Source: Escherichia phage Turkey5. Taken from it: DNA of 64,000 nt. Location: sequence record PQ471516.1. One strand, written 5' to 3'. Under the pieces are notes generated by a model that searched no databases, was not told the origin of the DNA, and was given only the letters and a program-made list of their open reading frames with translations. Positions 2,063 through 2,767 of the stretch are shown here, one piece after another; the stretch's first letter is position 1, and the number at the start of each line of letters is the position of its first letter. The translations under genes were made by a program, and so were the position numbers.

Positions 2063-2767
2063 ATGAAAATAAAATTAGAATATCCATACAGTAATGATTG
2101 GAAGAATGGGTATATACAGATAAACCCTGAAGGTAGAAGAACTGTAATACTTTATAATTCTCCAACTGATAGAAGCAGTACTCAATATGCTAGATATCTA
2201 TTAGCAGTAAAAGAAGGTAGATATTTAACTGAGTCTGAAGAAGCAGACCACATTGATAATGATTTCACAAATGATGATTTGTCTAATTTACAAATACTTC
2301 ATGTTGATGAACATCGTTATAAAACACATAAGAATGGAGTACAAGCACGATATGATTCATTTGTATGTGCTTGTTGTAATACGGAATTTTCCCGTAGACA
2401 TACTAAAGTGAAATCATATACAAAATATTGTAGTGTTGAGTGTTCACAAAAAATGGTCAAGCCTCCGTCAAATACAAAGGGTGGTGAAACATCAGTTGAT
2501 TATGAAAAGGTAAAAGAATATATTAACCAAGGTTTGTTAGATACTGAAATTGCTAAAATAATGAATATTAGCAAAGGTTCCGTACTAAATTATAGAACCA
2601 AAAATAATATACCATCAAAACATTTTGAGAAAGTAAGGATATTAGAAGATAATATTACTGAGATCAGAAAACGTTTGACAGATGGTGAGAAGAAGGTTAA
2701 GATATATGAAAGTTATGGTGTTTCGAAGAATGTATTTGCTAGGTTTTTAAAACGCCATAATATGTAA
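2063..2767 (+). CDS. HNH-family homing endonuclease-like protein
   Basis: HNH motif ADHIDNDFTNDDLSNLQILHVDEHRYKTHKNG, Cys cluster CACCN..CSVEC, C-terminal HTH-like segment; sits between tRNA genes next to the intron. Confidence 0.75.
   Translation: MKIKLEYPYSNDWKNGYIQINPEGRRTVILYNSPTDRSSTQYARYLLAVKEGRYLTESEEADHIDNDFTNDDLSNLQILHVDEHRYKTHKNGVQARYDSFVCACCNTEFSRRHTKVKSYTKYCSVECSQKMVKPPSNTKGGETSVDYEKVKEYINQGLLDTEIAKIMNISKGSVLNYRTKNNIPSKHFEKVRILEDNITEIRKRLTDGEKKVKIYESYGVSKNVFARFLKRHNM

Follow-up and report, generated by a model that had tools for sequence, protein, structure and literature searches.

Background

Has a homing endonuclease gene settled between two tRNA genes of a jumbo phage, and does it carry the intron of the neighbouring tRNA gene from genome to genome? 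The locus that raises this question lies in the 64,000 nucleotides (nt) of Escherichia phage Turkey5 (sequence record PQ471516.1) that were analysed here, hereafter called the window, in which an open reading frame (ORF) at positions 2063-2767 follows a tRNA gene with the anticodon CAU, tRNA(CAU), that is split by a group I intron. A preliminary description, made from the sequence alone, had placed a free-standing HNH gene 20 nt past the 3' exon of the split tRNA and between tRNA genes, and every coordinate in it proved correct: the ATG at 2063 stands 20 nt past the last base of the exon (2043), and the stop codon is separated by a 7-nt spacer from tRNA-Asn(GUU) at 2775-2849. We consider the ORF likely to be a free-standing homing endonuclease gene (HEG) of the HNH_3 / I-HmuI-like type, lodged in the spacer between tRNA(CAU) and tRNA-Asn. 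That its product moves the intron is plausible, with a probability that we would put close to the even mark and not above it.

Free-standing HNH genes in phage tRNA clusters are already well documented, and the orthologues of the window gene in phages RaK2 and K64-1 are annotated as HNH endonucleases. The authors of the CBB paper already regard another orthologue, CBB_420, as a free-standing HEG located where a tRNA gene ends (PMC5259590). When two phages infect the same cell, T4 SegB, a free-standing HEG within a tRNA cluster, propagates both its own gene and the tRNA genes around it, and it recognises a site to which the conserved T-psi-C motif of a tRNA gene belongs (PMC2330249); its homologues occur preferentially next to tRNA genes, of many isotypes (PMC13096335). 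With T4 MobE and the nrdB intron, as with F-CphI and the cyanophage psbA intron, an immobile intron is inherited together with the adjacent endonuclease by co-conversion (PMC2790892, PMC3984707, PMC6083498).

The ORF encodes an HNH endonuclease

That ORF 2063-2767 encodes an HNH endonuclease is confirmed by evidence that is consistent and sufficient; among the His-Me finger nucleases, the protein probably belongs to the I-HmuI-like / HNH_3 branch. PHROG 14913 ('HNH endonuclease') covers residues 1-149 of the protein end to end (1.1e-56). A search of 5.8 billion proteins returned 83 homologues (best E = 4e-140), most of them 130-160 amino acids (aa) in length and carrying PF13392 HNH_3. This model was matched by 35 of the 44 aligned family members when they were scanned singly, with a best value of 2.4e-9, and the window protein is thus linked to HNH_3 transitively.

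The AlphaFold2 model, with a mean predicted local distance difference test (pLDDT) score of 88.5, consists of a three-stranded N-terminal sheet, a beta-beta-alpha core at residues 59-90, a zinc ribbon and two three-helix bundles. When the model was compared with solved structures using Foldseek, the best match was the HNH homing endonuclease I-HmuI (1u3e) with a probability of 1.00 and E = 1.4e-3; the template modelling (TM) score to I-HmuI is low because the predicted model is multi-domain. A phmmer search of the protein against PDB sequences gave nothing meaningful, and the family profile found I-HmuI at no better than E = 0.11, with the HNH stretch lying on I-HmuI residues 72-106.

The most conserved part of the family is aa 1-56 (P8, W13, R25, Y42, R44, Y45 and R53), which, judging by the model, appears to correspond to the N-terminal DNA-binding sheet of I-HmuI. 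In the core, D62 and H63 are invariant in the 44 aligned members and N75-L76-Q77 are kept in at least 90% of them, while strands 59-63 and 76-80 and helix 81-90 were modelled with pLDDT > 90, so that the putative catalytic His, H63, closes the first strand, as in a beta-beta-alpha-metal fold; N75 would be the structural Asn. By the offset of the profile alignment, the D-H pair corresponds to D74/H75 of I-HmuI. At the metal-ligand position, the third of the motif, the window protein has H85 ('DEH') and hence a classical H-N-H, most members having N ('EN') there. Among the ligands of the zinc ribbon, which has weak matches to MYM/FCS-type zinc fingers, C102 is invariant and C105, C123 and C127 are kept in at least 90% of the 44 members. 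The resolvase HTH_7 model is matched by 13 of these 44, and the structural model shows the corresponding helices; the two helix-turn-helix (HTH) modules are presumed to be the sequence-specific DNA-binding part. The family comes in short forms (HNH and zinc ribbon), medium forms (with one HTH added) and long forms (with two), and the window protein is a long form.

With I-HmuI, the HNH nicking endonuclease of Bacillus phage SPO1, the window protein shares the order of modules (N-terminal beta sheet, HNH core, C-terminal HTH) and the Pfam neighbourhood (HNH_3), at a sequence identity of only ~14%. It differs in having an additional CxxC...CxxxC zinc ribbon and two HTH modules. I-HmuI is encoded within the group I intron of a DNA polymerase gene, whereas the window gene is free-standing between tRNA genes: it is an ORF of its own outside the intron (1777-2006) and past the complete 3' exon. 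For this reason, and because the orthologues adjoin intronless tRNAs in four genera, we rejected the idea that the gene is the former ORF of the intron. A terminase-associated HNH was also considered and set aside, as packaging genes are absent nearby.

Long-form orthologues, taken from phage records and metagenomic contigs together, are intact in ten cases out of ten, with pairwise ratios of non-synonymous to synonymous substitution rates (dN/dS) of 0.15-0.32, about 0.2. The HNH gene, of which the window holds one family copy, is therefore not a chance ORF, given homologues that reach 4e-140 and ten orthologues intact at low dN/dS. It is intact and under purifying selection.

Empty sites and a shared block in divergent phages

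The window comes from an AT-rich jumbo myovirus that falls in the PBECO4/121Q group (Asteriusvirus). Of the phages in the database, E. coli phage vB_EcoM_JNE01 (JNE01) is the nearest to it, with 95.8% nucleotide identity over 74% of a 20-kb test segment; TH47 could be aligned to only 16% of the same segment, at 81.5%. Relatives were sought in a comparison collection of 50,697 phage records. Full-length copies of the window HNH gene were found there in TH47 (93.6% aa identity), RaK2 (68.9%) and K64-1 (68.9%) only.

In most related phages the site of the HNH gene is a 4-nt spacer between tRNA(CAU) and tRNA-Asn. Fifteen phage records, among them PBECO4, CRJP21, four Salmonella SD phages, BF17 and vB_Ec-M-J, have an intronless tRNA-Met followed directly by tRNA-Asn, with neither the intron nor the HNH gene; the gap between the two tRNAs in PBECO4 and vB_Ec-M-J reads ATTA. 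JNE01 matches the window at 1556-1733 (98.9%) and 2856-5607 (97.1%) with no match between, and its own 738-bp insert codes for a NUMOD4 + HNH_3 protein.

The recent history of the locus is recorded in a block at about 1541-2540, comprising the spacer, the split tRNA and the first two thirds of the HNH gene, that is ~99% identical in the window, TH47 and L021, a metagenomic contig with a PBECO4/WPEC5-like backbone. The window and TH47 differ at 11 positions in 1473-2568 and at ~60 in 2569-2852, with sharp breakpoints at about 1473 and 2569, and L021 shows the same breakpoint pattern. In 49 syntenic ORFs of the window and TH47 the median aa identity is 55.6% and the maximum 93.1%, against 93.6% for the HNH protein and 99% over its first 169 aa. 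For RaK2 the syntenic median is 44% against 69% for the HNH protein. The tRNA-Asn allele of the window is 92% identical to those of RaK2 and OU509535, 89% to that of TH47 and 74-80% to those of HNH-less Asteriusvirus genomes; the flanking tRNA-Asn allele thus travels with the HNH gene. On the left, tRNA-Ser(GCU) is 97-100% identical in all Asteriusvirus relatives.

The empty and filled sites, the different cassette of JNE01, the shared block and the flanking alleles are, taken together, the traces that gene conversion around a HEG would be expected to leave, and they point to a recent exchange of the HNH gene and the intron-bearing tRNA between divergent phages. The preliminary description had reasoned that a gene found at this one place in every relative, and showing no sign of mobility, would speak against a mobile element; what was found is the reverse, with 15 empty records and the ~99% block.

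The interval from tRNA-Ser to tRNA-Thr, a few hundred bases long, holds at least five unrelated HNH lineages in the loci compared (L003, L004, L005, L007, L009 and L012). These are the window family, NUMOD4 + HNH_3 (JNE01 and ph0011), a short HNH_3 (OU509535), a FelixO1-like type (WPEC5 and Muenster) and a PF01844 type (vB_Ec-M-J). The interval is a hot spot of rival endonuclease genes.

The family beside tRNA genes

Orthologues stand 15-54 nt downstream of tRNA(CAU) in four jumbo-phage genera, and at least five very dissimilar sequence types are represented among these upstream tRNA(CAU) genes. Two contigs show the opposite order, with the tRNA(CAU) 8 nt downstream of the HNH gene. In the wider family, a tRNA on the same strand within 150 nt of the ORF was found in 43 of the 79 IMG/VR loci, with many isotypes represented; Leu(UAA), Met(CAU) and Ile(UAU) are the commonest.

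Some of these loci have features of their own. In L023 the HNH stop codon is followed at once by 32 nt from the 3' part of a tRNA-Met gene (1926-1957; GGTACGGTGTTCGACTCACCGAAGGGTCACCA); this remnant begins 9 nt past the intron insertion site and looks like the scar of a recombination event inside a tRNA-Met gene. Upstream of the same HNH gene lies a tRNA whose variable arm is long and whose anticodon seems to be UAU. The orthologue in L017 has no tRNA upstream; its place is taken by a stretch of ~190 nt (2285-2475, with the same region in L024) with a 10-bp closing stem (GTGGTAACAG...CTGTTACCAC); a good promoter-like site, TTGACA-17-TAAGAT, lies ahead of it. No Rfam family was matched in the 275-nt gap that precedes the L017 orthologue, and the stretch could be a structured RNA not described before.

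Several tRNA(CAU) genes next to HNH genes are overlooked by ARAGORN or annotation, namely those of RaK2 (L002 2861-2938), Yen9-04 (L010 ~2404-2482), L026, L014 and L020, and the tRNA-Met of RaK2 is missing from the RefSeq feature table. The tRNA(CAU) of the CBB/Yen9-04/L026 type has an odd T-loop (GGGTTAGACTCCC), and that of the L014/L020 type has a long variable arm, giving a length of 87-92 nt.

The split tRNA and its intron

The intron matches the Rfam family Intron_gpI (RF00028) at 95.1 bits, against a gathering score of 50. Its boundaries are fixed by the intronless alleles of WPEC5 and PBECO4, which are identical over the junction (...GCAAACGACTCAT/AATCGTT..., the slash marking the junction). 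The spliced exons (75-76 nt) fold into a canonical tRNA(CAU) cloverleaf, which ARAGORN overlooks because the gene is split. This tRNA may serve either as elongator Met or, with a lysidine modification, as Ile2; one CAU tRNA in ph0011 is annotated as Ile.

The 5' exon is 100% identical to that of TH47 and 97% identical to the intronless alleles of WPEC5 and PBECO4. The intron is 99% identical to that of TH47 and 91-92% identical to those of the Klebsiella phages Muenster, KP13-7, RCIP0023 and phiKp_21 and of OU509535. The T-stem of the window tRNA(CAU), CTGTG/CACAG, is that of the intron-bearing Muenster (Klebsiella-phage) allele and not the CGGTG/CACCG of the intronless PBECO4/WPEC5 alleles. 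At the 3' end the intron-bearing tRNA(CAU) has no CCA (...GGCTCACAA), whereas the alleles of intronless relatives encode it (...GGCCCACCA).

In OU509535 (L012, 2871-3166) the same group I intron (92% identity) occupies the same anticodon-loop position in a quite different tRNA(CAU) gene (GGGACTGTAGCTCAGGGG...). The tRNA(CAU) genes of the window/Muenster type and of the OU509535 type have little in common beyond the anticodon stem-loop, CGACTCAT/AATCG, which means that the ORF-less intron has passed between tRNA genes that are not alleles of each other. A metagenome scan for intron/HNH loci yielded four loci, of which three were informative, and an exact-pattern scan of IMG/VR for the intron core gave no matches.

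Intron and endonuclease together and apart

How the intron relates to the HNH gene can be read from genomes that have only one of the two. The intron occurs without a window-family HNH in Muenster, KP13-7, RCIP0023, phiKp_21, OU509535, L112 and L113. Conversely, a window-family HNH stands beside an intronless tRNA(CAU) in RaK2, K64-1, CBB, Yen9-04, L014, L020, L025 and L026. All four combinations of intron and HNH, present or absent, thus exist, and the strict co-occurrence expected of a collaborative pair was not found. Intron and HNH are therefore separable; the ~99% block, on the other hand, spans both, and hence they moved together at least among the three backbones. The proposal in the preliminary description that the HNH may mobilise the intron or the tRNA block in trans fits the shared block; as the intron-only and HNH-only genomes show, such an association would not be obligatory.

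Every intron-bearing locus seen has some free-standing HNH within ~250 nt. These HNH genes come from four unrelated lineages: the window family, a short HNH_3 (OU509535 and L113), the FelixO1-like type (the Muenster group) and an upstream NUMOD4-HNH (L112). This fits an intron that hitch-hikes. No statistical conclusion can be drawn from the co-occurrence, since this stretch attracts endonuclease genes in any case and the genomes cannot be counted as independent.

From what the family is known to do, we infer the following course of events. The HNH gene would be co-transcribed with the tRNA cluster, and in a mixed infection its protein would nick or cut a related, HNH-less genome at or close to the junction of tRNA(CAU) and tRNA-Asn. 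In the recombinational repair that follows, the HNH gene and the DNA on either side of it would be copied from the donor, and with them the ORF-less intron and the tRNA alleles next to it, as in trans homing of the MobE / nrdB-intron type. Co-conversion of the intron would be expected from its position ~60-290 bp upstream of the HNH gene, which is within the normal co-conversion distance.

A stricter arrangement is collaborative homing of the F-CphI / psbA-intron type, in which the target of the HNH enzyme is the intron insertion site itself and the intron confers immunity. An ORF-less intron directly beside a free-standing HEG is suggestive of it, as is the presence of the same intron at the same position in two dissimilar tRNA(CAU) genes, from which it follows that something targets that site. 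The free-standing HNH near each intron locus adds to this, and the tRNA-Met remnant of L023 gives a weak hint. RaK2, however, has an HNH gene and an intronless anticodon stem-loop whose 13-nt core, CGACTCATAATCG, is identical to the spliced exons of the window, so that the phage's own DNA would be cut by an enzyme aimed at the insertion site. This counts against strict collaborative homing and for the co-conversion of a nearby passenger, as with T4 MobE and the nrdB intron. The HNH-only genomes, the occurrence of the intron without the window-family HNH (the Muenster group, OU509535 and L112) and the many tRNA isotypes, not CAU alone, beside which wider-family members stand also speak against it. 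Taken together, we regard strict collaborative homing as quite unlikely.

Weighing the homing reading

Several observations, collected here, weigh against an active HEG that moves itself and the intron. The first of them concern the state of the gene. PF01844 had been proposed in the preliminary description as a check on HNH identity, and on this point the proposal failed: a direct Pfam scan of the 234-aa protein matched no HNH model, PF01844 and HNH_3 included, even at E <= 10, and returned nothing but weak, sub-threshold HTH_7 and HTH_17 in the C-terminal third, so that the identity was reached through PHROG 14913, transitive HNH_3 homology, the conserved motif and the I-HmuI fold match instead. 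The third motif position has His in place of the usual Asn of the family. No Shine-Dalgarno sequence is recognisable in the 19-nt leader of the gene, the ribosome-binding site being weak or absent. In L111 (OEQX01000005.1, a 179-kb contig), a copy of the whole cassette that is otherwise 94% identical carries TCA to TAA at HNH codon 128, past the zinc ribbon, which would remove both HTH modules. HNH copies may therefore decay, HEGs being known to pass through such a phase; the stop codon could also be a sequencing error.

These same points, with the short 133-134 aa forms without HTH modules in CBB and Yen9-04, are what can be said for an inactive relic, that is, a decaying endonuclease gene carried along with the tRNA cluster and no longer cutting DNA. 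The frame, however, is intact in the window and in nine other long orthologues at dN/dS about 0.2, every conserved catalytic and zinc-binding residue is present, the fold is confidently predicted and the gene has spread very recently into three backbones, all of which makes a relic highly improbable.

The next point concerns descent. HNH identity roughly tracks taxonomy, with 93% within the genus, 69% to Alcyoneusvirus and 56-62% to Mimasvirus/Eneladusvirus, and an old, partly vertical history with losses therefore contributes. Taken further, this would make the gene an old resident of the jumbo-phage tRNA cluster, inherited mainly vertically, often lost and retained for a benefit to the phage. 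Possible benefits are the exclusion of competitors' markers, or a SegB-like amplification or exchange of tRNA cassettes against tRNA-cleaving host defences; SegB amplifies tRNA genes and defeats Septu (PMC13096335). The constant place 3' of tRNA(CAU) in Asteriusvirus, Alcyoneusvirus, Mimasvirus and Eneladusvirus and the clear purifying selection agree with such a history. Five facts do not. The HNH gene is missing from most of the window's own genus, with a clean empty site. The block is 99% identical in three backbones that are otherwise 55-80% alike. With RaK2 the HNH protein shares 69% identity, a good deal more than the syntenic median of 44%. The upstream tRNA(CAU) is of at least five unrelated types, which vertical descent of one locus does not predict. 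Finally, there is no tandem amplification in the window, with its one family copy. We therefore think it unlikely that the gene is mainly an old resident, and retain homing with co-conversion as the reading that these distributions favour.

The last points concern the part played by the enzyme. Since intron and HNH are independent in some genomes, their joint transfer could be the work of ordinary homologous recombination and not endonuclease-driven. When the junctions were compared to locate a cleavage site, no target could be deduced, as no single candidate site is consistently disrupted. HNH-bearing and empty genomes differ in the T-stem and acceptor 3' end of tRNA(CAU) and in the D-arm of tRNA-Asn, with exceptions: L020 has the HNH gene together with an 'empty-type' tRNA-Asn, and in RaK2, which also has the gene, the anticodon-loop site is intact.

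Layout of the locus and neighbouring features

The tRNA cluster lies in the first 4.5 kb of the window and comprises genes for Gly, Ser(UGA), Ser(GCU), Asn and two Thr tRNAs in addition to the split tRNA(CAU). The features of the locus are given in Table 1.

Table 1. Coordinates of the features of the tRNA(CAU)/HNH locus in the window.
Feature	Position	Strand	Description
Promoter-like site	1461..1489	+	TTGACT-17-TATAAT with TG extension, ahead of tRNA-Ser
tRNA-Ser(GCU)	1496..1585	+	Left end of the block common to the window, TH47 and L021
Cassette (split tRNA(CAU), HNH, tRNA-Asn)	1734..2855	+	1122 bp; JNE01 has a 738-bp NUMOD4-HNH cassette instead
tRNA(CAU) 5' exon	1739..1776	+	Ends in anticodon CAT
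Group I intron	1777..2006	+	230 nt, ORF-less; anticodon loop, between tRNA positions 36 and 37
tRNA(CAU) 3' exon	2007..2043	+	CCA not encoded, CAA instead
HNH leader	2044..2062	+	19 nt, CAAACTTTGAAATAAAATA; between tRNA 3' end and ATG
HNH ORF	2063..2767	+	ATG start, 234 aa plus stop
N-terminal domain, aa 1-56	2063..2230	+	Three-stranded beta sheet plus helix
HNH (beta-beta-alpha-metal) core, aa 57-90	2231..2332	+	E59, D62, H63 ... N75-L76-Q77 ... H85
Zinc ribbon, aa 97-130	2351..2452	+	C102-x2-C105 ... C123-x3-C127 (FCS-like 'KYCSVEC')
Two C-terminal HTH modules, aa 147-180 and 186-231	2501..2755	+	Long family forms only
Divergent right-hand part	2569..2852	+	HNH C-terminus plus tRNA-Asn; breakpoint ~2569 inside HNH gene
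tRNA-Asn(GUU)	2775..2849	+	'RaK2 type'; right flank of HNH

The promoter-like site at 1461-1489 has 11 of the 12 consensus positions and is the top-scoring site in 1-4600; the count of promoter-like sites in total is not above chance, and the start at this site is hence one that we infer. No terminator-like site was found between it and 3000. It is the probable start, by these predictions, of a transcription unit made up of tRNA-Ser, the split tRNA(CAU), the HNH gene and tRNA-Asn, and the HNH gene is probably co-transcribed with the tRNAs, because the strongest promoter-like site precedes tRNA-Ser(GCU) and no terminator-like site follows before 3000. Leaders of a type related to that of the window gene, A/C-TTTT(T)AAA, stand ahead of the orthologues in RaK2, CBB, Yen9-04, L023 and L017.

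A near-identical promoter-like motif is found at 350-378, and the motif TTGACTAAATA[AG]T[CT]CAGTACTGATA[AT]AAT recurs ahead of tRNA genes (350-378, 1461-1489 and the region 3771-4020). Its palindromic core, (G)TATTCAGTACTGAAT, has more copies near 3775-3790, 3893-3910 and 4005-4017. The core CAGTACTG also stands ahead of tRNA genes in RaK2, Muenster, Yen9-04 and CBB, and the repeated motif of the CAGTACTG type looks like a phage-specific promoter or regulatory element.

Other features of the window were recorded in passing. Right behind tRNA-Ser(UGA), at 479-557 on the + strand, is a tRNA-like sequence with 33.3 bits to the Rfam tRNA model (threshold 29) and no ARAGORN call. In ph0011 and other relatives a normal tRNA-Arg takes the equivalent place, and the sequence may be a degenerate or unusual tRNA. 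Three tandem paralogous ORFs of 54 aa, each beginning MTHEEWM... and with ATGA stop/start overlaps, lie at 582-1068 (+); the triplet is kept in WPEC5, BF17, vB_Ec-M-J and ph0011. The two tRNA-Thr(UGU) genes at 4290-4363 and 4370-4443 (+) lie side by side and have clearly different sequences, and relatives hold one or two. A set of minus-strand paralogues of ~400 aa is found at 42727-43929, 47832-49019, 50239-51417 and 52743-53927, and also at 10607-11809. They were considered as nucleases and rejected: four of the five contain RCC1-like beta-propeller repeats (WD40_RLD, RCC1 and RCC1_2), and the fifth has no Pfam match.

Relation to known systems and significance

The analogy with the T4 seg and mob genes drawn at the outset was apt, with SegB as the precedent in a tRNA cluster and MobE as the precedent for trans homing. 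SegB and the window HNH family are alike in their location in tRNA clusters and in their association with tRNAs of many isotypes. SegB is a GIY-YIG enzyme, however, whereas the window gene is HNH with no GIY-YIG match, and the SegB case has no intron; SegB is therefore a functional analogue only. MobE is likewise an HNH enzyme, and in both cases a free-standing endonuclease gene lies beside an intron that cannot move alone. The window differs from MobE and F-CphI in that the host gene is a tRNA gene and not a protein-coding one, and in that the intron lacks even a defunct ORF.

Nearer relatives are the orthologues RaK2 ORF219 and that of K64-1 (69% over the full length), and CBB_420 and fHe-Yen9-04 g417 (56-62% over the first 133 aa). 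All of these lie just downstream of a tRNA(CAU), with no intron at any. Both HTH modules are missing from the CBB and Yen9-04 proteins. The window copy stands apart in its distinct C-terminal HTH2 region and in being carried by the backbone of an E. coli phage. The T5 enzymes F-TflI, F-TflII and F-TflIV, which the SegB paper cites, are also HNH enzymes among phage tRNA genes. The likeness of the window HNH to them is one of location and family, with no significant similarity in the searches made; one Muenster HNH is annotated by similarity to TflIV.

On its own, the HNH gene is an ordinary selfish gene. The value of the locus lies in the clear natural experiment that it offers, with empty, HNH-only, intron-only and doubly occupied alleles among sequenced relatives, and this makes it a handy system for the trans homing of an ORF-less tRNA intron and for the target rules of a tRNA-associated HNH family. 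For annotation, it is a reminder that standard tRNA finders and RefSeq overlook split tRNAs and several unusual tRNA(CAU) genes beside these HNH genes.

A more far-reaching idea is that the ORF-less tRNA(CAU) intron may be a hitch-hiker on any free-standing HNH gene that chances to adjoin it, four unrelated lineages doing so in different genomes, and that the family may recognise a generic tRNA feature, as SegB does; we hold it to be rather unlikely in this full form. If it were true, the locus would show in nature the stage that precedes a composite mobile intron. It would also drive the shuffling of tRNA cassettes from one jumbo phage to another, and possibly their amplification, which would affect how these phages escape tRNA-cleaving defences. 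The locus bears on whether HEG-driven exchange of tRNA cassettes matters for the adaptation of jumbo phages.

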